A stretch of 64,000 bases of DNA from Minisyncoccota bacterium (GTDB lineage: Bacteria > Patescibacteriota > Minisyncoccia > Phycocordibacterales > BOKC01), in contig CP129473.1 of the NCBI GenBank assembly GCA_030583745.1, positions 362,887 through 426,886 of the forward strand, in the 5' to 3' direction. The translations under genes and the position numbers were made by a program. This document shows positions 27,117-64,000 of this stretch, one piece after another. Under the pieces are notes generated by a model, which did not search any database, had not been told where the DNA came from, and worked only from the letters and a program-made list of their open reading frames with translations. How positions within the stretch are numbered: the first letter of the stretch is position 1; every line of letters starts with the position of its first letter.

Positions 27117-27683
27117 TTGCGAAAGAGTCTTAGGCGAGAGTTCGAAACTTTGCGTATGAGGAAGGCATACGAGTTACCAGACAACGTACAAGCAATCGTG
27201 AACCTGATCGGCGCAGGCAAAAAGTGTGCCGAGGATGTTTCAAGAACTGGTCACGTTGCTCGACTCGTGAGTCAGATTGGAGCAACAGGTTCAGGTCTTC
27301 CTGTGGTTTTTCTAAACGGAGAGTCAGAAGAGCTTGAAAATATGGTGGAGCTTGCCGTTCAAGCCGATATTCCGCCTCAGATCATCCGACTCCAAGACTG
27401 TGGTCGGAAAGGTGAGGCGAATACCAAAACTCAATTTCAGGCTTTGAAAGCCGACTTGGAGTCGTATGCGCTTTCGCGCATTGTTTTGGTGACAAGCACT
27501 TACCATGTTCCCCGGGTCGCAAGAACGGCGGTTAAACACCTCCCGCCGAGTGTCTGGTTTACTGTTGTCTCTGATCTGAACGATATTGAGCTCTACGACT
27601 GGGAGGAGAGGGTGGGGAGCGAAATTGAACGGATCATCCGTTACGTCGCAAAGGGAGACATTAGCGCCGAATTGCCGGCATAA
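27117..27683 (+). CDS. DUF218/YdcF-family protein, GC-rich (~50% GC), probably horizontally acquired.
   Basis: LVTSTYHVPRVARTA matches the DUF218 hallmark. aggagg SD upstream. ORF-track TTG start; ATG at 27156 also possible. GC content clearly above flanks. Confidence 0.55.
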   Translation: MRKSLRREFETLRMRKAYELPDNVQAIVNLIGAGKKCAEDVSRTGHVARLVSQIGATGSGLPVVFLNGESEELENMVELAVQADIPPQIIRLQDCGRKGEANTKTQFQALKADLESYALSRIVLVTSTYHVPRVARTAVKHLPPSVWFTVVSDLNDIELYDWEERVGSEIERIIRYVAKGDISAELPA

Positions 27684-34359: not shown

Positions 34360-34734
34360 TTAATCATTATTCCAAAAATTAATTACATTATTCCACTCAT
34401 TTTTAAGATTGTCTGATAAATAAATCAAAAATTCCTCAGGATTAGCGTCTTTTTCCCAAGAAATATTATTTTGCAAGGTTTCTAATAATCCTATTGTAAT
34501 TGCTTCTTTGACATATCTATCGCCATCTTTAAATATGTTATCTATCAGTTTAAATATTGTTTTTAGTTCTTCTTCCTTTTTTTCTTTATAAAGTTTTAAA
34601 ATGTATCTGGAAAGCTCTGCAAGAATTGTGTAGACATCTTCTTTCTCCCAAACAAATTCCATAAACTCTAAATATCCTCTGAACCCATCAGATTTTTTGA
34701 CTATGTGGTCTGTTAAATCTCTCTTAGTAAACAT
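34360..34734 (-). CDS. Hypothetical 124-aa acidic protein; candidate immunity protein for the orphan toxin 34735..35505.
   Basis: Position immediately downstream of toxin cassette with 1-nt spacing. No recognisable family. Confidence 0.4.
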   Translation of the reverse strand: MFTKRDLTDHIVKKSDGFRGYLEFMEFVWEKEDVYTILAELSRYILKLYKEKKEEELKTIFKLIDNIFKDGDRYVKEAITIGLLETLQNNISWEKDANPEEFLIYLSDNLKNEWNNVINFWNND

Positions 34735-35505
34735 TTATTTTTTTATCTTACTAAGTGCATCCTTAAGATCTTTGGAAATTCTGTTTAGAACATTCCTCTC
34801 TTGAGAATTCAAACTAGATCCATGTTTATCAAATATATTATCAATTCTATTTAGGGTATTACGCGCCTTTTCAATATGGGTGGAACCCCCAACCGGGTCG
34901 CCTGTCTTTGCGGTATGTCTTATTGCGTCTGCCGTGCTACCATCCCCTATTTTCGATCCTGCTCTATAATTATCTCTTATAAGGTTAAGGATGCTTTCAT
35001 TCTCTACACCTTTCATTAAGGAACGACCCACCATATTAGTGCTTCTAAAAGCATCCCCCAACGCACCAAATACTCCAGGAATAACAGAAACTCCAGCCAA
35101 AGCTCGCTCACCCCAACTCAATCCTTCACCAGTAAATACATCTTGACCAGTGCGTGCTTCTTGAATTGCAATAGCATCACTGGAGCCGGGCGCGAAGTTA
35201 AGGGCAGTCTGGTAATTATCAACCAGTATCGGCACCAGATGAACATTTGAGGCGATGAACGAAGAGATGGCGATGAGAGCGGGGGCTAGTTGAATAAACT
35301 CCCCTCCCGGGTCCACATGTTTGATCGGATTCCCCCTAGCATAACTGTACGAATTATGCAGTTGCGGATCAGAAAGGTATTGCTCTAGTTCAAGGTTGGT
35401 TTTGTTCTTTATTTCCCCAGGATTACCTACCGCAAGAAAGACTGGGTCCTGACTCAAGAACCTAGCGGTCTTACCATCCTGATACCTCGCCACCATGTAG
35501 TTCAA
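34735..35505 (-). CDS. Orphan RHS C-terminal cassette 2: conserved core tail (in-frame extension up to ~35640 without ATG) plus divergent C-terminal toxin domain of unknown type.
   Basis: N-terminus MNYMVARYQDGKTARFLSQDPVFLAVGN parallels the main RHS junction NYMNARYQDGKVGRFISQDPVFLAVGN. Upstream in-frame sequence encodes ...TDYYPYGKIKLDE. Confidence 0.6.
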   Translation of the reverse strand: MNYMVARYQDGKTARFLSQDPVFLAVGNPGEIKNKTNLELEQYLSDPQLHNSYSYARGNPIKHVDPGGEFIQLAPALIAISSFIASNVHLVPILVDNYQTALNFAPGSSDAIAIQEARTGQDVFTGEGLSWGERALAGVSVIPGVFGALGDAFRSTNMVGRSLMKGVENESILNLIRDNYRAGSKIGDGSTADAIRHTAKTGDPVGGSTHIEKARNTLNRIDNIFDKHGSSLNSQERNVLNRISKDLKDALSKIKK

Positions 35506-35668
35506 ATCAGTAGCTTCGTCATAGAAGTGCCCGGTGAATTTTCTTCTTTCTTTAAATGTACCTGTCGTCTCGTCTAACTTTATCTTACCATACGGGTAGT
35601 AGTCCGTAACCTCTGTTAATCCACCTCTACTGGTGGATTAGCGAAATAATAAATTAAAAAGAAATTTG

Positions 35669-35917
35669 TTAAATTTTCATGTGGGGAGAACAAAAACCTG
35701 TGAGATAATCTAAGGCCTCTAATACCCAATCTTCATCTTTCTCTCTGCCTTCTTTCCGTAGAAAAAGCATATACTCTGTCACATCGCTCTCTAATTGTTT
35801 CCGATCATACCCTTCCTTGAGAATCTTAATGAAAAGTTCGCGCATTTTAAGATCAGGGTCCATTTCTGCCTTGAGAGCTTCCTCTATACCATTTATCAAT
35901 TCTTCTTTCTTTTTCAT
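35669..35917 (-). CDS. Hypothetical 82-aa protein; candidate immunity protein for orphan cassette 1.
   Basis: Genomic position only. Confidence 0.35.
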   Translation of the reverse strand: MKKKEELINGIEEALKAEMDPDLKMRELFIKILKEGYDRKQLESDVTEYMLFLRKEGREKDEDWVLEALDYLTGFCSPHMKI

Positions 35918-35920
35918 AAA

Positions 35921-36676
35921 TTAAAGCTTTTTCCAGAATTCTTGGGTAGATTGCATTAGTTTATCAAGCTTGCTTTTAGACATACTGTTAGAAGGTTGTA
36001 TAGTGCCGTGAGTAGAACTATCTGGAACATATTTAAGACCGCTCGGTAAATTAGAGCATTTTATGCACCATACTGGATCTTTTCCTGTGCCTCCAAATTC
36101 TGGTGTGCGTCTATGTATTTGTAGATTATAGGGACTATTAGGACTAACCGACATTCCCCCATCTGCGGAATGAACAAAACCTTTTGCATCTATAGGAATA
36201 TCCCTTCCTAATCTTACCCCTAACCCTCTCGCGGAATTTTCTACCATCGGAAGTCCGTCGGGACCCTCTTTCATCGCCCTAAATAGAAGCGTTTCTCCAA
36301 CATCATCCACTTTATTCACCGCCGCTCCTACCGCCTTATTCACCCCCTTAGAAGCGCCTCCACCCGGAGCGACGATTGAGCCGACCAGGATAGCGGCTTC
36401 CAGTCCGGGATTTTCAAAATTATCGCTGGTTGGAGCGTAAGCAACATTGGGAGTCAAAAGCCCGATAATAGCGGCTAAAACTAAACCTTCCCCCGTCGGA
36501 TCAACATACTTTAGAGGATTGTTGGCCACATAACTGTAGGAGTTTAGCTCTTGAGGATTTATCAGTAGTTGTTCCAGAGTTCTGTCGTATTTACTCAAAT
36601 CCTTTCCGACATCATGGAACATGGGATCTTGTGAGATAAATCTCCCAACCTTCCCATCTTGATAACGGGCGTTCAT
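35921..36676 (-). CDS. Orphan RHS C-terminal cassette 1: core tail (in-frame extension to ~36843, 160 bp identical to main RHS) plus distinct C-terminal toxin domain of unknown type.
   Basis: MNARYQDGKVGRFISQDP junction identical to main gene. DNA 36623..36783 matches 37826..37987. Confidence 0.6.
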   Translation of the reverse strand: MNARYQDGKVGRFISQDPMFHDVGKDLSKYDRTLEQLLINPQELNSYSYVANNPLKYVDPTGEGLVLAAIIGLLTPNVAYAPTSDNFENPGLEAAILVGSIVAPGGGASKGVNKAVGAAVNKVDDVGETLLFRAMKEGPDGLPMVENSARGLGVRLGRDIPIDAKGFVHSADGGMSVSPNSPYNLQIHRRTPEFGGTGKDPVWCIKCSNLPSGLKYVPDSSTHGTIQPSNSMSKSKLDKLMQSTQEFWKKL

Positions 36677-36866
36677 GTAATTAAGGTCGGTATCTTCATC
36701 GTAGGTGTGGCCGGTGTATTTCTTTGACGTTTTGAAAGTGCTGGCTTGTTCGTCTAGTTTTATCTTACCATACGGATAGTAGTCAGTAACCTCTGCTAAT
36801 CCACCGTTTGAGTTGGTGACAACACTGGTGCCGCCTAGGTGAAAAGTTAAGAGCTCCTATTGTTAC

Positions 36867-37127
36867 TCACGATAACTTTAAAATTGATTCTGCGATTTTA
36901 TAATATTTCTTGCTATCCCCAGCTATATTTTCATCAAACTGATCTACAAAGACTGTATATAGTTTTTCTCCAAGTTCATATTTATCATCTTCCTTGTTTA
37001 ACAATGGTATGATAAATTTTTCAACCAGTGGATCATATTCATCATTAGGTGCACCAGTTCTTATAAGATCAACGGGGTCGTGGTTTCGAAAGATGTCTTT
37101 TATTTCTTTTATATAATTCTTTTCCAT
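36867..37127 (-). CDS. Hypothetical 86-aa acidic protein; candidate immunity protein for the main RHS toxin.
   Basis: 2-nt gap downstream of RHS stop. Small acidic cytoplasmic protein. Confidence 0.4.
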   Translation of the reverse strand: MEKNYIKEIKDIFRNHDPVDLIRTGAPNDEYDPLVEKFIIPLLNKEDDKYELGEKLYTVFVDQFDENIAGDSKKYYKIAESILKLS

Positions 37128-37129
37128 TT

Positions 37130-40100
37130 TTATTCCGCATATTTTTTAAGAAACTTGATTATATGTGGTTCAAACTGCTTTTTTGAGTAAGTAGTAATAA
37201 CTTTATTAGTTTTATTATCTAACACAACAGCCGTCTCTTTTGTAAGATACAAAGATCTTCCACTTGTTTGTTCTAATTTAGCGACAGGATTTCCTATGGT
37301 ATTCAACACATCTTGATGACTGACGCCTCTTGTTTCAGATCTCATGGCTGAATATGGAGTGTATCCACCAAATTTTCCTGCTGTAGGTTCTACAATTTTG
37401 CCTAAATCTCCGATTGAATCGCCAACTCTTAGTGATTTACTTGAGTCAATAACTCTCTCAATTGCTTTTCTTGCATCATTAACATCATCCGCCTTCCCTC
37501 CAATCCTAGCCGCAAATCCTAATCCCGCCACTCCCGGCAAAGCAGCACCGGCAATATCAGCTCCTAAAGCAGTAATGTTTTCCCTGCTGACACTTCCAGT
37601 TCGGGCAATATCTTGACCGATTTTGTATAGATCATAGCCAATAAAGCCGACATCAAGAAAGATGTCAATGAATTCTCCGGTGGAGTCGGTGTGTTTAAGC
37701 GGATTGTTCTTGACGTAACTGTACGAGTTCAAGAGTTGCGGATCAGAAAGATACTGCTCTAATTCTAGTCCCGTCTTCTCCTTTATTACCTGTGAATTCC
37801 CCACCGCCAGAAAGACCGGATCTTGTGAGATAAATCTCCCAACCTTCCCATCTTGATAACGGGCGTTCATGTAATTAAGGTCGGTATCTTCATCGTAGGT
37901 GTGGCCGGTGTATTTCTTTGACGTTTTGAAAGTGCTGGCTTGTTCGTCTAGTTTTATCTTACCATACGGATAGTAGTCGGTTAACTCTTCTAATCCACCG
38001 TTGCTTTTGGTAACGACACTGGTGCCTAAGAGATGGTCGGGGTGTAGATAGAATATCTTGGCACTTGCGTCTATAGGCTCTGACATGGAGCCAAATCCCC
38101 CAAATCCTCCTCCGCCTGTTTGTAAGACACTTGTTTCAATCGTGGCGATCAGATCGTCGCCTGCGTAGATATGCTTGGTCGGTTTTCTATTTTTGACATC
38201 ATAATGCCGAGTGATATAAGTGGTGGTGGCAGAGTTGTTTATGGCATAGGTTAAACGATTGCCTTGGGGATCGTAGGAGTAGGTTGTGGTGGTGGCGCCG
38301 TTTGAAATTTCGGTCAATTGATTGCGGTAATCCCAAGAGAAAGATGATTGACCGAGAGCGGTTAAGTTTCCATTCTTATCGTAAGTGAGAGTATTGGAAG
38401 CGATGGAAGTTACGGCATGAGGATTGGCGTAATTTGATCCCTGGTTGCCTTCATATAAGTAATTCCCTTGATCGGATTTGGATGTGATGTTGCCGATATT
38501 TGAATAGGTGTAAGCTTCTGAATAATTTCCGCCGACAGCATCAGTTGTGGAAGCTGAAGTCAGGCGGTGCAGATCGTCATAGGCATAATCAATCATCTTG
38601 GCTGTGTTTGTATCAGAGCTGTCAATAATTTTAGTGATGTTTCCTACGGCATCATAAGTGTAGGATAAATCTTGCCAGACATTTTCATTGTAGCGAGTAG
38701 TTTTGTTTGACAGGCGGTAGAGCTTGTCAGGATCATAGGTATTTGTCGTTGAAGCGTTATTTCCGTAATGGAGGTAAGTGACTTGACCCAAAGGAGAGTA
38801 ATCTAGATCGTGCGCCAAGACGCTCGGATATATTGAAGTCGGCTCTTTCCAGGCCACCTTTTCCAATAGACCGGCCTTGTTGTAATCGTAGCTGATAAAT
38901 GAACTATCCGGGTGGGTAAGCTTAGTTAAATTGCCCTGACGATCATACTCATATTGAGTGGCGTAATTCGTGTTGATAATCTTTTTGGTTTCTTTTTTAA
39001 CACGACCTAAAGGATCATATTCATTTGATAGAACCATAATTGTAGTTGTGGCACTGCAAAGCTGGCCGATACCGTTCGGGCATGAGTCGTAACCGTATTC
39101 CACTTCTGTTCCAGACCAGACGGTGTAATTTTCTGTCAGACGACGATTTAGGTCGTTATATGTATATATAATGTTTTGGCCTTTCGGGTCTGTACTAGAA
39201 GCCAAATTACCCGCAGGATCATAATCGTAAGACCAGATACCAAAAGTATTGTCTGTGGGATTATGAAGATCTTCTGCCGTTAAATTCCTACCTAACCCGT
39301 CATAGGTAAAGTTGCGGATATTACCTTCAGCGTCAGTAATCTTTGTAAGATTTCTATTGCCATTCCAGTTATAAGTCGTGGTATAGGTATTTGCGTTATT
39401 GATTTCTTCAACTTTAACAAGATTATCATATGCGTCTTTGTAGAAATGCTTTACTTTATTCAGCGGATCGGTAACGGTAAGCTTCCAATCGTTATAGGTA
39501 TTAGCGGTTGTTCCTAAGGCATTGAATATTGTTTTAACTCTTCCCAGAGCGTCATAAGAATGCTCGATGTATAGAGCGGATGTGGTGGTAGCAGGTGTAG
39601 AGCTTGCGCCGGTAGAAAAATACGGCAGTGATTCTTTCTGTATTTTACCAATGGCATTGTAGGCAAAATCGCGAACAGAAAAATTATTGAAATCTTCAGC
39701 CTCTCTACGTTCTTGGATCACTCTTCCCAGCCCGTCAAGATAAGTATACGCATCAGACGAAGTGGCGGAATTAAGATAATCAGTTCTTTTAATTGAGCGT
39801 GGAAAACTGAAGTCGTCGTAGGAAAAAGCGGTCTTGGTGACTAGATTTCCCGGTGAGTCCAAATCCGGCTGTTTTTCTTCAATTATTCTGCCAAATGAAT
39901 CGTAGAAGACCTGAAAAGTATTTCCGTTAGGGTCTATTATTTCTCGCGGTTTACCTGAAGAATAATCGTAGTACCTTTCTGTTATATGTGATAGCGGATT
40001 TGTAGTAGTGGCAGGATATAGATTGTGGAGATCGTAAACGTAAGTTGTTATTTTGCCTCTAGGGTCTTTTTCCTCGGTTACCAAACCGAAATTGTTATAG

Positions 40101-50425: not shown

Positions 50426-51466
50426 TTATAAATTACCGATAGCTATTTTTAGTCGGTTTGCAAGAATAGCTAGGTCGTGATTTTTCTCAACATAATCGCG
50501 CAGTTCATTTCTTATAAGCTTGGTTTTCTCAGAATCTAAATGTAATAGATTATGCAATGTAATTGCAAGATCTTCTGCATCAACCCTATCAAGAATTAAT
50601 TCTGGATTAATTTTTCCTCGAAGATTTGAATGCGGAGAAACGATTAGAGTCCCGACAGACATTGCTTCAAACATTGTTTTATCATATAAGCCATCTGGAC
50701 TCAAATTAACAAAAATATTATGAGAAGCGTAAATACTTGGCGTAGTATGGTTTGGAACAGATTGAAAAAAAATAACTTTATTCTCAATTTCTAAAACCTG
50801 AGCCTTCTTTTTCAAACTTAAATAGTAATTTTCATCTTTTGGTAATGGATCGCCGTAAATTGACGCCATAAATTCGTCTCCCTTTTGATTAAGTAATCCG
50901 AGTGATTCAATAAACAAGTCCTGTTTTTTTATAGGAGCGATCCGACCTAAACAAAGAATGGTATTTTGTTTTCTAGAAATGGAATCATCCGGTTTAAAAA
51001 AATTTGTATCTATACCAACGGGCATTATTTCTGTTTTATCAAACTTAGCGGTGAAAGATTTGGAAGATGTGCAAAAAACTTTATCAGAAAAATAAATCGC
51101 TAATCTAGTTAAAAAATTACCACTTGAGTGGTTGCGCCACATAGTAATCTTTTTTCCCAGAATTTTCCAAAATAAACCTCCCAAAATAATATACTCTTGG
51201 TTCATATGGACAAAAACAGAATCATAGTTTTTCCTTTCATTCCAAATATATTTATAAAATCTGTATAAGTATTTTAATTTGGAAGTTCCGCCTTCTTTAC
51301 CAAGAGATAGAACGTTTACATTATTAGGTAAGTGATATTCACCTCTCCAAAGACAAATGACTGTAATTTTTTCAAAATGTTTAGAAAATTCCTCAAGCCA
51401 ATGATGGAAAAAGCCCAAAATAGAATCGTTTCTATCAACTTTCTGTGTGATAATCAGCAATTTCAT
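50426..51466 (-). CDS. Glycosyltransferase (GT4-like).
   Basis: CLGRIAPIKKQD...FEAMSVGTLIVSP. Confidence 0.65.
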   Translation of the reverse strand: MKLLIITQKVDRNDSILGFFHHWLEEFSKHFEKITVICLWRGEYHLPNNVNVLSLGKEGGTSKLKYLYRFYKYIWNERKNYDSVFVHMNQEYIILGGLFWKILGKKITMWRNHSSGNFLTRLAIYFSDKVFCTSSKSFTAKFDKTEIMPVGIDTNFFKPDDSISRKQNTILCLGRIAPIKKQDLFIESLGLLNQKGDEFMASIYGDPLPKDENYYLSLKKKAQVLEIENKVIFFQSVPNHTTPSIYASHNIFVNLSPDGLYDKTMFEAMSVGTLIVSPHSNLRGKINPELILDRVDAEDLAITLHNLLHLDSEKTKLIRNELRDYVEKNHDLAILANRLKIAIGNL

Positions 51467-60943: not shown

Positions 60944-60962
60944 GACATCGCAAGTCCTTATT
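60944..60962. repeat. REP-like 19-nt hairpin aaggacatcgcaagtcctt (orientation A), just 3' of the transposase gene.
   Basis: Stem aaggac/gtcctt with 7-nt loop. Related copies at 61476, 61697, 61748. Confidence 0.7.
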
Positions 60963-61644
60963 ATTCTAAATCTAAAGCAACCTCTTGAAAATTTTCCACA
61001 CTTATATCTTTAAGCCAGTTTCGTATACCTTTTCTATAGCCATCAGTTCCGCCGAAAAAATCTAACATGAAATCACGTTGGGTAACAGATGGAAAATTTT
61101 TCTCTCCAAGATAGTCTAAATGACTCGACCAACGATAAGAACCTAGAAAATTTATTGCCTGCCTATAATCTTTCAACTTCCCCTCTCTCCACTCCGGCGC
61201 GGTTAAATCAAGAGGGTTTAAATGAATGTAATAAGGTAAGTGAATGAAATGCGCGTCGTTTTCTACTAAAACTCTTTTATATCTTGATTCAAATAAAGCC
61301 CCCTTTCTCTCATATTTTTCATTGAAATATTTAGCATATCCCATATTTACTTTCTTCATAAATTTGGAAATACCGTAATCTATTTTGGATGAAATCAATA
61401 AATGATAATGGTTGGGCATCAAACAGAAAGCGTTAAGATTTACCAACAGTTTTCGCTTCTGCCGAGTTTTTTCAATATAAGGACTTGCGATGTCCTTAAT
61501 TTTGGAGAAACGATAAAGAGAGTTGTTAACCCAATTCTGATCGTTAAACTCAAATAAATCGTGAATAAAACGGAGATAATCCTTGTTATCAAGAAAAATA
61601 TTTCTCTTGTCTACCCCTCTATTTAGTACGTGGTAAAACTCCAT
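60961..61644 (-). CDS. IS200/IS605-type HuH Y1 transposase / REP-associated tyrosine transposase (RAYT)-like.
   Basis: HuH motif PNHYHLL. C-terminal Tyr region RYKRVLVENDAHFIHLPYYIHLNPL. Confidence 0.7.
   Translation of the reverse strand: MEFYHVLNRGVDKRNIFLDNKDYLRFIHDLFEFNDQNWVNNSLYRFSKIKDIASPYIEKTRQKRKLLVNLNAFCLMPNHYHLLISSKIDYGISKFMKKVNMGYAKYFNEKYERKGALFESRYKRVLVENDAHFIHLPYYIHLNPLDLTAPEWREGKLKDYRQAINFLGSYRWSSHLDYLGEKNFPSVTQRDFMLDFFGGTDGYRKGIRNWLKDISVENFQEVALDLE
61476..61494. repeat. REP-like hairpin aaggacttgcgatgtcctt (orientation B), located inside the transposase CDS (encodes KDIASPY).
   Basis: Exact reverse complement of the 60944 copy. Confidence 0.7.
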
Positions 61645-61715: not shown

Positions 61716-61786
61716 TATTTATATTTAGAGAAAGGTCTAATTTTCGGACGTCTGATGTCCGATGTTTATTAAATTTTCGAAAAAGT

Positions 61787-61856
61787 CGGGCTGCCGAGAA
61801 TCGAACCCGGACTTCACGCACCCGAAGCGTGTGGACTACCACTATCCTACAGCCCG
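61787..61856 (-). tRNA. tRNA-Pro (anticodon CGG).
   Basis: Manual cloverleaf. C1:G72 acceptor cgggctg/cagcccg. Anticodon stem cacgc/gcgtg with loop ttCGGgt. T-arm GGTTCGATTC. CCA not encoded. Confidence 0.75.
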
Positions 61857-61886
61857 AACTAAATAAAAACTTACTTTTTTACCGAA

Positions 61887-61970
61887 TGGGCAAGGGGGGA
61901 GTTGAACCCCCACTGGATTGCTCCAACACGGCCCTGAACCGTGCGCGTCTGCCAATTCCGCCACTTGCCC
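61887..61970 (-). tRNA. tRNA-Leu (anticodon CAG), long variable arm.
   Basis: Acceptor gggcaag/cttgccc. Anticodon stem cacgg/ccgtg, loop ttCAGgg. Long variable arm. T-arm GGTTCAACTCC. Confidence 0.7.
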
Positions 61971-62053
61971 ACACACTTACTTTGCCATTAAAGAATTTTT
62001 TGCAACGAAAAAGACTGGTAAAGCTGATGTGGAACATGCCCAATCAAAACCAA

Positions 62054-62110
62054 TGCGCGTGCCAGGGATCGAACCTGGGACCTTTCGAGTATCAGTCGAA
62101 TGCTCTACCT
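62054..62110 (-). pseudogene. Partial copy (~55 nt, 3' portion: T-arm, anticodon arm, part of D-arm) of tRNA-Ile(GAU).
   Basis: Identical to the 3' part of the 62155..62227 tRNA, diverging at the D-stem. Confidence 0.55.
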
Positions 62111-62154
62111 TCACCCGCCCATCAATTTTTAAATACTTTATTTACCGTCCAAAG

Positions 62155-62227
62155 TGCGCGTGCCAGGGATCGAACCTGGGACCTTTCGAGTATCAGTCGA
62201 ATGCTCTACCAACTGAGCTACACGCGC
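62155..62227 (-). tRNA. tRNA-Ile (anticodon GAU).
   Basis: gcgcgtg-ta-gctc-agttggta-gagc-a-ttcga-ctGATac-tcgaa-aggtc-ccagg-ttcgatc-cctgg-cacgcgc-a; perfect cloverleaf. Confidence 0.8.
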
Positions 62228-62284
62228 ACTCTAGAAATTAAAAATATATTTATTGATGTCAAAATTGATAGGCGGGCAAGCCTG

Positions 62285-62393
62285 AGCTACACGCGCGCAA
62301 TATTTGCTTTTCAAGATTCTAACACCCTGCGTACGTTTAATCTCTGGGCCTACCAAGACAGCTACACGCGCGCAATATTTGCTTTTCAAGATT
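62285..62393. repeat. Two 34-bp direct repeats (agctacacgcgcgcaatatttgcttttcaagatt) 75 bp apart; their first 12 nt equal the 5' end of tRNA-Ile (reverse complement gcgcgtgtagct).
   Basis: Seen in sequence at ~62285..62318 and ~62360..62393. Confidence 0.6.
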
Positions 62394-62469
62394 TCTACCA
62401 CGCGAGACAAACCTAAACCCAAAATACCCATAAAAATTAACAAAAAAAACTCTCAAAAACAAGAGAGCC

Positions 62470-62497
62470 CCGCGCGCAAGCGCGCGGGGCTCATATA
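62470..62497 (-). terminator. Strong GC hairpin (gagccccgcgcgc-aa-gcgcgcggggctc) followed on the minus strand by a T-run; terminator of 62503..62742.
   Basis: Perfect 13-bp palindrome. Confidence 0.6.
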
Positions 62498-62502
62498 TGA
62501 AT

Positions 62503-62742
62503 TCACTTCCCCCATTCAGGTCCAACCCAGACCCGATGGTACCGACGCCTTCCCTCAATTGCCTCCAACGGCACTTTCTTGCCGTTGATCTCCACCTGCA
62601 CGATCTTGCCGGTGGGGACGGAAACATAGACGACGGGCTTTCGGGCGTCATCAACGATGATCACCACAGTCAAAGCCCCGAAGAAAATATAGAAGACAGT
62701 GAGAAGAAGAACGTTTCGAATTAGACGCTTGATTTTTCCCAC
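62503..62742 (-). CDS. Small (79 aa) GC-rich membrane protein, GTG start with aaaggag SD.
   Basis: N-terminal TM LLLTVFYIFFGALTVVIIV. Own SD and terminator. Other overlapping ORFs in this GC-rich stretch rejected. Confidence 0.4.
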   Translation of the reverse strand: MGKIKRLIRNVLLLTVFYIFFGALTVVIIVDDARKPVVYVSVPTGKIVQVEINGKKVPLEAIEGRRRYHRVWVGPEWGK

Positions 62743-62831
62743 GAAGAGCTCCTTTCTTCTTTATTCCTGCCGTCATTGGCTGGGAATCTTCTAATAGGAT
62801 ACAACAATTAACAAAATAAGTCAAATGAAAA

Positions 62832-62857
62832 CGCCCCCGTCTAGACGGAGGCGTGAG
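62832..62857 (-). terminator. Hairpin acgcccccgtc-tag-acggaggcgt downstream of 62872..63108.
   Basis: Seen in sequence. Confidence 0.4.
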
Positions 62858-62871
62858 CGAGACACAACAGG

Positions 62872-63108
62872 TCAAGCCCAGTACCGAGGGCTGCACTCTG
62901 TGCAGACCTGTTCTCCGGTGTAAGGATCCACCTGGAGAAGCGTTTTGTGGGTCGAACAGTAGAGGGCGAGGTGGGGCCACTCCTCCTTTTCCTCGCTTTC
63001 CACATCAACACCACCGAGGTGACTTTCAGTCAAAGCCACCTGACCAGCTTCGGTCTTGATGAGATTCCTCATTTCTCTCACCTTATCCCACCTGATTGTG
63101 GCCATCAT
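62872..63108 (-). CDS. Small (79 aa) GC-rich Cys-containing (CxxH...CxxC) hypothetical protein with perfect aaggagg SD 5 nt upstream of ATGATG.
   Basis: Start trimmed from ORF-track 63150 to MMATIRWDKV. SD and terminator present. Confidence 0.45.
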   Translation of the reverse strand: MMATIRWDKVREMRNLIKTEAGQVALTESHLGGVDVESEEKEEWPHLALYCSTHKTLLQVDPYTGEQVCTECSPRYWA

Positions 63109-63195
63109 GACCTCCTTCTTTGTTGCGAAGAGTCCTTTCACACATAGCACTTACAACAAGCGCTAATCCTTTTTCATACTAACACATTTAAAAAC

Positions 63196-63231
63196 AAAAA
63201 GCAATCCAAGTCTGGACTGCTTTTTGTTTAT
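63196..63231. terminator. A/T-flanked hairpin (aaaaagcaatccaagtctggactgcttttt) between the small GC-rich gene and the 16S 3' end; probable rRNA operon terminator.
   Basis: Seen in sequence. Confidence 0.4.
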
Positions 63232-63399
63232 TATCCTTTGTTTTGTTCCGTTCTAGCCCGATCATTTTACAAAGTAAAATAATTTAGGGTCTTTGTTGTG
63301 TATCTTTCTACACCTGTCATCCAATTTAGGTTTTGAAAACCATTGTACACTCGATCGAGATGTACAATATCGACTGTAGCCCCCACCGAAGTGAGGGTT

Positions 63400-63547
63400 G
63401 TTCAATTTGAAATATTCCACGAGCAGCTTCCGCTACCCGTGCCTTGTTACGACTTACTCCCTGTTATTGAGCTTACCGTGATGCCACAAAAGTGACGCTT
63501 CGGGTATTCCCAACTCCCTTGAGTTGACGGGCGGTATTTGATGTGTT
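63400..63547 (-). rRNA. Partial 16S rRNA, 3'-terminal ~150 nt (E. coli ~1390-1540 region), continuing upstream beyond an intervening sequence.
   Basis: Reverse complement reads ACCGCCCGTCAACTCAAGGGAGTTGGG...GGGAGTAAGTCGTAACAAGGCACGGGTAGCGGAAGCTGCTCGTGGAAUAUUUCAAAUU. Universal 1400-region and GUAACAAGG signatures; h45 with GGAA loop. Boundaries approximate. Confidence 0.6.
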
Positions 63548-64000
63548 ATAATGTCACCATTATAATTCTCTTCAACACGGGGCAAGCGGTTTTCCCGCAC
63601 CCTCGCGTTTTCCAAAGGTTGCTTATCCGATTTTTTTATCGAATTCACTTACCTTGCCATGATAAGTTTTAGCTTTCTTCCCTAATGAGCGCAAATCATT
63701 GCGTAGGGAAACAATTTTGTTAAATCCATCATCAGATAAATGTTCTTTGGCGCAAACCATAAGAACTATTTTTCTAAAAATAAGATAGGATTTTTTCTTT
63801 TTCGCCTGTAATGGATACTTATCAAGAAACGGGAATAAATACTCTTTCAGGTCCCAGATGCTGGTAATTTTATACTTGGCATGCGGATACCATCCATATC
63901 GCTCATAAGAGCAATCATAAATTCTCCCGATTCCGATAGTCACAAGTATGCGTTCCAGGATTTCTTGATCATCTTTCCGCAATTCTATTTCAAATTCCGG
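63548..64000 (-). mobile_element. Intervening sequence (probable group I intron) inserted near the 16S 1390s/1400 region, carrying a homing-endonuclease ORF; extends beyond window end.
   Basis: Sequence between the recognisable 16S exon and window end is non-rRNA-like and encodes a LAGLIDADG-fold protein in the rRNA orientation. Confidence 0.5.
63623..64000 (-). CDS. LAGLIDADG-family homing endonuclease (I-CreI-like, C-terminal part; N-terminus with the LAGLIDADG motif lies outside the window).
   Basis: ...IGRIYDCSYERYGWYPHAKYKITSIWDLKEYLFPFLDKYPLQAKKKKSYLIFRKIVLMV... aligns in pattern with the I-CreI segment VGYVRDRGSVSDYILSEIKPLHNFLTQLQPFLKLKQKQANLVLKII. Frame open to position 64000. Confidence 0.55.
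   Translation of the reverse strand, partial: PEFEIELRKDDQEILERILVTIGIGRIYDCSYERYGWYPHAKYKITSIWDLKEYLFPFLDKYPLQAKKKKSYLIFRKIVLMVCAKEHLSDDGFNKIVSLRNDLRSLGKKAKTYHGKVSEFDKKIG

Follow-up and report, generated by a model that had tools for sequence, protein, structure and literature searches.

A 16S rRNA 3' end without the anti-Shine-Dalgarno motif in a Candidatus Paceibacterota genome, with evidence for pairing between its tail and the precursor trailer

The minus strand at the end of a 64,000-nucleotide (nt) stretch of bacterial DNA (contig CP129473.1, positions 362,887 to 426,886; hereafter the window) carries the 3' part of a 16S ribosomal RNA (rRNA) gene in which the anti-Shine-Dalgarno (anti-SD) motif CCUCC is missing from its usual place. 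Textbooks describe start-codon selection in bacteria as pairing of the Shine-Dalgarno (SD) sequence with the anti-SD, one of the best-conserved stretches of rRNA. The gene described here is very probably the functional 16S 3' end of a bacterium of Candidatus Paceibacterota (Parcubacteria, within the candidate phyla radiation, CPR), whose lineage replaced CCUCC by UUUCA (tail GGAAUAUUUCAAAU) and starts translation without SD sequences.

Structure of the 16S rRNA 3' exon

All 16S positions are given in E. coli numbering, and the tail is taken, by homology with E. coli, as the 13 nt that follow helix 45 (h45). Minus-strand positions 63535-63405 are the final 131 nt of a bacterial 16S rRNA gene (3' exon, E. 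coli ~1398-1542) and comprise, in order, ACCGCCCGUCA, a shortened helix 44 (h44), GUAACAAGG, h45 with its GGAA loop and the tail GGAAUAUUUCAAAU. The stretch between the short h44 and h45 contains AAGUCGUAACAAGG, and the tail is followed by UGAAC.... Read on the minus strand, 63380-63560 runs ...AAAU up to an insertion-exon boundary and continues directly beyond it with ACCGCCCGUCAACUCAAGGGAGUUGGGAAUACCCGAAGCGUCACUUUUGUGGCAUCACGGUAAGCUCAAUAACAGGGAGUAAGUCGUAACAAGGCACGGGUAGCGGAAGCUGCUCGUGGAAUAUUUCAAAUUGAAC..., the junction being placed by comparison with contigs L127 and L248 (see below). Covariance alignment to the Rfam model SSU_rRNA_bacteria (RF00177) set 63405-63545 against model positions ~1390-1533 and covered CCGCCCGUCA, GUCGUAACAAGG and h45 (CACGGGUAGC-GGAA-GCUGCUCGUG; 63418..63441, minus strand), a 10-bp stem that was 100% paired in 99 distinct relatives. 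The decoding-site strand CCGCCCGUCA, GUCGUAACAAGG and the h45 GGAA loop are thus all present within 63535-63418, and h44 lacks its tip, a deletion reported for CPR.

Opposite the model sequence GAUcACCUCCUUu, the alignment placed GAAUAUUUCAAAU from the window, and the position-by-position comparison with the Rfam consensus showed that positions 1535-1539, the anti-SD equivalent (window 63412-63408, minus strand), read UUUCA in place of CCUCC. The CCUCC-bearing tail GAUCACCUCCUU was not found in the window 16S, whose tail is GAAUAUUUCAAAU. A preliminary description of this region had claimed a conserved 16S end with an h45 GGAA loop and a tail devoid of CCUCC at 63380-63560; the RF00177 alignment bears this out, and on the minus strand it places no CCUCC-bearing 3' end anywhere in the region. 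The missing motif does not stop the gene from being a 16S rRNA gene, since CCUCC is a near-universal feature of the tail and not a defining one. The window fragment scored 37.3 bits against RF00177, for which the gathering score is 50, and a scan at the scale of the window returned no small-subunit (SSU) match; the low score arises because the gene is both cut by the window end and split by an insertion.

An insertion between positions 1397 and 1398

The small open reading frame (ORF) adjoining the 16S was used as a query for further contigs and recovered L127, which comes from a different sample and sequencing run, is 100% identical to the window across 1432 nt and reaches further upstream. 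The first 247 nt of L127 scored 178.8 bits as 16S positions ~1147-1397, well above the 50-bit gathering score, and represent the upstream exon. Exon 1 ends ...CUUGUACUC on L127 and exon 2 begins ACCGCCCGUCA at window position 63535, so that an insertion of ~1020 nt (248-1267 on L127) splits the 16S between E. coli 1397 and 1398. Its ORF encodes a 192-amino-acid (aa) LAGLIDADG homing endonuclease (Pfam PF00961, E=6e-10), and the full insertion on L127 matched the Rfam group II intron D1-D4 model RF01998 at 49.8 bits and not the group I model. The window holds the 3' part of this insertion (63536..64000, minus strand) with the endonuclease ORF at 63623-64000, where it is cut by the window end. 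Endonucleases 90-92% identical to that of the window sit in the 16S genes of two other contigs (L109 and L143).

Two contigs from other samples, L248 and L249, have the same tail and trailer as the window, but the insertion they carry is another one, without an ORF, at the same site or the one next to it. The identical tail in independent samples (L127, L248 and L249) therefore excludes an assembly error, and the 16S tail is neither such an error nor a pseudogene nor a displaced end.

Loss of CCUCC across the lineage

The ORF adjoining the 16S is identical to the NCBI protein QY304_02225 of a Candidatus Paceibacterota metagenome-assembled genome (MAG). The nearest 16S among those fetched belongs to a MAG of Candidatus Zambryskibacteria, with 87.5% identity across 361 nt; next come those of Paceibacterota, Nomurabacteria and Parcubacteria MAGs. 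SecA, GatB, MurB, MurC and MurD are encoded in the window, which uses the standard genetic code and has bacterial-type, GC-rich transfer RNAs (tRNAs; 58-64% GC). Judged by these sequence affinities, the host is affiliated with Parcubacteria (CPR), Candidatus Paceibacterota / Paceibacteria.

A scan of GTDB representative contigs with the h45 apex returned 120 rows, mostly Actinomycetota and Chloroflexota with normal tails, which served as anti-SD-bearing controls. None of the 23 species-representative loci with the h45 stem CACGG/TCGTG had CCUCC (23/23), while nearly all other loci in the scan read GGAUCACCUCCUU. Scanning metagenomes with a contiguous 22-mer, the clade-specific 3' strand of h45, gave a set of 142 genomic and metagenomic tails, and in 140 of these same-h45 16S genes CCUCC was missing from the tail position; the remaining two read GGAUCACCUCCUUUCU. 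The trait-bearing clade comes from groundwater, lake and sediment metagenomes, and loss of the anti-SD is lineage-wide and conserved, not local. Two metagenomic loci (L163 and L174) combine the clade-specific h45 stem with a retained GGAUCACCUCCUUUCU and may mark the branch point of the loss.

Constraint on the replacement tail and its pairing with the trailer

Across 130 distinct tails the replacement sequence was conserved (Y1533, 100%; A1534, 88%; U1536, 90%; U1537, 96%; C1538, 75%; A1539, 70%; A1540, 76%), and conservation faded beyond ~1547. The clade consensus is GGA-W-Y-A-W-U-U-C-A-A, in which 1535-1539 correspond to W-U-U-C-A, and tails such as GGAUCACUUCC (L176) and GGAUCAAUUCC resemble intermediates between CCUCC and UUUCA. 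Together with the trailer covariation described next, this conservation indicates that the replacement tail is under selection and not in decay.

Canonical genes follow the tail with ...UUUCUAGGGAG or ...UUUCUAAGGAG, which lets C1536-U-C-C1539 pair with GGAG. In the window, the corresponding bases would form a mini-hairpin, UUCA-AAU-UGAA (63401..63411, minus strand), in which 1536-1539 pair with the first trailer bases and the predicted mature 3' end (~63405) falls in the loop. A second trailer hairpin, CCCUCAC-UUCG-GUGGGGG, is predicted from sequence and folding at 63380..63397 (minus strand), and many relatives have a hairpin of variable sequence at this place. Among anti-SD-less genes, the pairing of 1536-1539 with the trailer was UUCA/UGAA in 43 of 80 and AUCC/GGAA in 8 of 8, the latter with three pairs each (UCC/GGA); further combinations were UUUU/AAAA or AAAG, UUCC/GGAA, UUUC/GAAA, UUCU/AGAA and UCCA/UGGA.

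The pairing was assessed by a fixed-register test and by model-based pair counts, which replaced a generic search for any hairpin that was too permissive in AT-rich sequence. At fixed register the mean was 3.36 of 4 pairs, against 2.89 ± 0.04 after random exchange of the trailers between sequences; none of the 300 permutations attained the observed value. A covariance model was built from 22 seeds and 100 anti-SD-less loci were aligned to it; the 1536-1539/trailer helix was 89.5% paired, all four pairs (4/4) showed two-sided changes, and 0 of 500 shuffles reached the score, whereas slid-register controls in the same alignment were 31-48% paired. In a mixed alignment of canonical and anti-SD-less genes, the pair at 1536 was C-G in 48 and U-A in 27 and that at 1539 was C-G in 51, A-U in 21 and U-A in 9, with the helix 94% paired. 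These counts support a pairing of 1536-1539 with the trailer that has been kept by compensatory changes on both strands (CUCC/GGAG to UUCA/UGAA, UCC/GGA or UUUU/AAAA).

Translation initiation in native genes

GGAGG-type 5-mers were tallied at -20 to -4 of 46 ORFs in the window and at control positions. Such SD-like 5-mers preceded 2 of the 46 ORFs (4%), compared with 7-11% at control positions, and the SD-less genes include secA, gatB, murB, murC and murD. No G or purine peak was seen upstream of the starts, where G made up 7-24% at -14 to -1 and A and U dominated. Occurrences of AGGAGG or GGAGGT in the window lie mostly inside genes, and before a start they were found only at one small GC-rich ORF (ORF77, below) and at one glycosyltransferase gene. 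Start codons lie in sequence of lower GC content than gene interiors (0.29 versus 0.38-0.41), and 40-nt windows at start codons are less stably folded, with a mean minimum free energy (MFE) of -2.9 kcal/mol compared with -4.2 to -5.2 kcal/mol inside genes. These properties fit an SD-independent mode of initiation on open, AU-rich starts, the conclusion that Amin et al. also reached for 128 anti-SD-less taxa (PMC6107228). Both claims of the preliminary description that bear on initiation, namely that the native genes inspected have no SD motifs upstream and that the organism follows an SD-independent regime, agree with these results, the first through the tally and the second through the lack of SD enrichment combined with a lineage-wide 16S tail without CCUCC.

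Tallies on the relatives and on the anti-SD-bearing controls had low power, their loci being mostly rRNA. On anti-SD-bearing CPR loci (Magasanikbacteria L007, L025 and L084; Saccharibacteria), few SDs were present among 32 ORFs, a sample too thin to interpret; the few ORFs on the Magasanikbacteria loci have no obvious SDs, a hint that initiation without SDs may be older in CPR than the loss of the anti-SD.

Interpretation and alternative explanations

If the window 16S is, as we think very probable, a functional 3' end in which UUUCA has replaced CCUCC, its 30S subunits would find start codons without pairing between rRNA and messenger RNA (mRNA), presumably aided by the AU-rich, weakly folded start regions. 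The anti-SD could have decayed once two constraints on 1530-1539 were relaxed, SD pairing and the binding of Era, which contacts these nucleotides (PMC13000453) and recognizes GAUCACCUCC but is reported to be missing from most CPR (PMC10582724). The conserved hairpin would be a precursor structure for 3'-end maturation, with the mature end (~63405) in its loop, and would have been kept when anti-SD function was lost. We tentatively propose, with a little less than even confidence, that the anti-SD segment also forms one strand of a 3'-end hairpin in the precursor, serving maturation or the masking of immature 30S subunits, and that this second role is separable from SD-dependent initiation and outlived it.

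Several observations weigh against this interpretation. The single-sequence MFE structure of the window did not contain the mini-hairpin, a 4-bp AU-rich helix being too weak, and had AUUGA paired instead with GUCGAU, a conserved sequence further downstream. The pair counts come from alignments fitted to the model, a procedure that favors the structure, and ~10-15% of the clade's tails had no obvious partner strand. The mature 3' end is itself a prediction, and the 3' strand of the mini-hairpin may belong either to the trailer or to the mature rRNA. As for initiation, the SD tally covers 46 crudely called ORFs, and the positive control (high-GC, anti-SD-bearing loci) gave just 13% versus 3%, because start calling is poor in high-GC DNA. 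A native glycosyltransferase ORF (50426-51466) has AGGAGG upstream at an over-long spacing of 11 nt, and this ORF and two SD-bearing small ORFs (ORF77 and ORF79) stand as exceptions.

It is very improbable that the SD:anti-SD pair has been re-coded, the UUUCA(A) tail now pairing with UGAAA-like motifs upstream of starts. The new tail is conserved and not random, and a mature end within the hairpin loop would leave it single-stranded, but its complements were not enriched as such a pair would lead one to expect. Complementary 5-mers occurred in 57% of the upstream regions, which are AU-rich and hence rich in partial complements, against 43-50% at control positions and a shuffle mean of 50%; complementary 6-mers were found in 11% against 16-17% in controls. 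TGAAA preceded 1 of the 46 ORFs, and the words that were enriched upstream (TTTAA, ATAA and TTAG) can be traced to stop codons and to the high AT content. Amin et al. likewise saw no compensating motif in any of 128 anti-SD-less taxa (PMC6107228).

Still less probable is that the gene is a degenerate or pseudogenized copy, or an assembly chimera, and that the ribosomes use another, canonical 16S gene. A window score below the gathering threshold would suit such a copy, and the search for further copies reached the window and not the whole genome; the low score is, however, due to truncation and insertion, and the upstream exon scores far above the threshold. The sequence recurs identically in independent samples with the decoding site, h44 and h45 intact. 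The same kind of tail in 140 of the 142 lineage members, with compensatory covariation, speaks for selection and not decay. CPR genomes of ~0.7 Mb typically have a single rrn set, a further point against this explanation. The preliminary description had offered a degenerate rRNA copy as a fallback, which a replacement tail that is constrained and covaries with the trailer does not support.

Least probable of all is the other fallback of that description, in which a second insertion or intron, lodged in the 3' tail, pushed the anti-SD downstream so that the spliced rRNA would still end in GAUCACCUCCUU. One large insertion with a homing-endonuclease gene is indeed present in the window 16S, and insertions of this kind are a known trait of rRNA genes in CPR (PMC9297842). 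Over the 2 kb downstream, however, neither GAUCACCUCC nor ACCUCCU occurs in the window or in any of 23 relatives, and the lone CCTCC there in the window, 571 nt away, lies in the stem of a terminator hairpin. The sequence straight after h45 is conserved in the 130 distinct tails with canonical Y1533, A1534, U1537 and C1538 kept, and anti-SD-less tails pair with the trailer in the canonical register; this pattern fits point substitution in place and not insertion.

Comparison with known systems

Tsurumaki et al. (2022, RNA 28:1041) reported the anti-SD motif in just 48% of Parcubacteria, the loss overlapping the group that lacks uL1, and suggested that SD helices do not form in that group (PMC9297842). 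The window 16S resembles the genes described there in belonging to the same group, in missing CCUCCU at the 16S 3' end, and in its short h44 and rRNA insertion with a homing-endonuclease gene. That paper, as far as consulted, gives presence or absence of the motif and its overlap with uL1 loss, and does not give the replacement sequence, SD usage, a consensus or trailer covariation. In the present genome the region of rplA, the gene for uL1, lies outside the window. The core fact, loss of the anti-SD in Parcubacteria, is thus already published, and the window is a rediscovery in a new genome. Among the papers searched, none was found to describe the replacement consensus, the covariation of 1536-1539 with the trailer or the finding that mRNAs of this clade have no compensating motif; the precursor hairpin with its covariation adds a modest new detail.

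Anti-SD-less bacteria in other phyla were reportedly listed by Lim et al. in 2012. Bacteria without the consensus anti-SD include some Flavobacteriia, Mycoplasma, Carsonella and Blattabacterium, and the 128 taxa of Amin et al. (2018) generally have no SDs (PMC6107228). The window resembles those taxa in that a lost or altered CCUCC goes with absent SDs and no compensating mRNA motif. Unlike the present clade, which is a large CPR group of free environments, they belong to other phyla and consist for the most part of AT-rich endosymbionts restricted to hosts, or of scattered genera.

Mitochondrial SSU rRNAs are of bacterial type with h45, have no anti-SD and serve SD-less mRNAs, and the window 16S is like them in all three respects. 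It differs in that it belongs to a free bacterial genome with GC-rich tRNAs (58-64%), mur genes, secA and gatB, and in that its tail sequence is unrelated.

Ribosomes of Bacteroidia ignore SDs because bS21, bS18 and bS6 sequester the anti-SD, and genetics in Flavobacterium points to a role of the anti-SD in 16S maturation, possibly via contacts of Era or YbeY with 1530-1539 (PMC13000453). SD-independent initiation on AU- or A-rich starts is common to both cases, genome-wide in Bacteroidia and in the window genes here, and a role of 1530-1539 in maturation, outside mRNA binding, fits the trailer pairing retained in the present clade. Bacteroidia, however, keep CCUCC for rpsU autoregulation and maturation, whereas the window 16S lacks the sequence itself and is not a case of an occluded anti-SD.

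Consequences of anti-SD loss

A large environmental clade without the anti-SD shows that the SD:anti-SD mechanism is dispensable. Gene finders and annotation of 16S 3' ends should accordingly presume neither SD nor CCUCC in these genomes, 16S primers and probes relying on the CCUCC tail would miss these genes, and SD-bearing genes in such a genome are candidates for recent acquisition. The retained trailer pairing suggests that rRNA maturation constrains the tail region, in agreement with the Flavobacterium genetics (PMC13000453). If the proposed second role of the anti-SD segment is true, Paceibacteria would be a natural experiment that separates the translational from the biogenesis function of the 16S tail.

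Downstream of the 16S gene and elsewhere in the window

On the minus strand at 61785-63232, the 16S is followed by a hairpin with a U-run, a cassette of small ORFs, tRNA-Ile, tRNA-Leu(CAG) and tRNA-Pro(CGG), and then by an IS200-like Y1 transposase gene (60961-61644) and murD. The hairpin, at 63189..63232 (minus strand), is a terminator-like structure of 17 bp with a U-run, recognized by MFE folding and sequence, ~175-215 nt downstream of the 16S end. No 23S gene was found after the 16S in the window, which suggests that the rRNA genes are unlinked. Contigs of the window organism from short-read data, recovered via the Y1 transposase (L001-L006), all break at the tRNA cluster and stop short of the 16S.

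The cassette between the 16S and tRNA-Ile consists of two small ORFs, both on the minus strand, whose GC content is 52-55% as against ~38% for the genome. ORF77 (62872-63105; 62872..63116 with its SD) encodes a 77-aa orphan, has 54% GC and is preceded by a perfect AAGGAGG SD 5 nt before its ATG, while ORF79 (62503-62742; 62503..62760 with its SD) encodes 79 aa, has 52% GC and carries AAAGGAG as its SD. Downstream of each ORF lies a GC-rich hairpin that resembles a terminator. ORF77 and ORF79 are the only ORFs in the window with strong SDs. The pair is conserved in related strains, between which the middle third of ORF77 is hypervariable (55% identity) in flanking DNA that is otherwise identical. 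No homologues outside their own lineage were found among 5.8 billion proteins, and the cassette matched neither phage records nor any Pfam family; a foreign origin is plausible but unproven. The assertion of the preliminary description that GC-rich acquired genes keep SDs held for these two ORFs and failed for the other GC-richer ORFs (323-886, 27156-27683 and 37130-43663), none of which has an SD.

A partial tRNA-Ile(GAU) copy of 65 nt, lacking the D-arm, is found at 62054-62118 (minus strand), 35 nt downstream of the intact tRNA-Ile at 62154-62227; it scored 41 bits with Rfam and was missed by ARAGORN. Two paralogous ORFs of ~480 aa, 43825-45291 and 46977-48407 (minus strand), share an identical 30-nt upstream sequence, catttttaatggtttcctacttctaacggg, before the ATG and flank a third ORF of similar length. 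Finally, a toxin-like cluster at 34360-43663 (minus strand) comprises a 2177-aa ORF (37130-43663), two ORFs that begin ...YMxARYQDGK, one of them with a Tse2 ADP-ribosyltransferase domain (35921-36676), and a DUF7674 ORF (34360-34734), and its gene content is reminiscent of polymorphic-toxin loci, one gene being a candidate for immunity.

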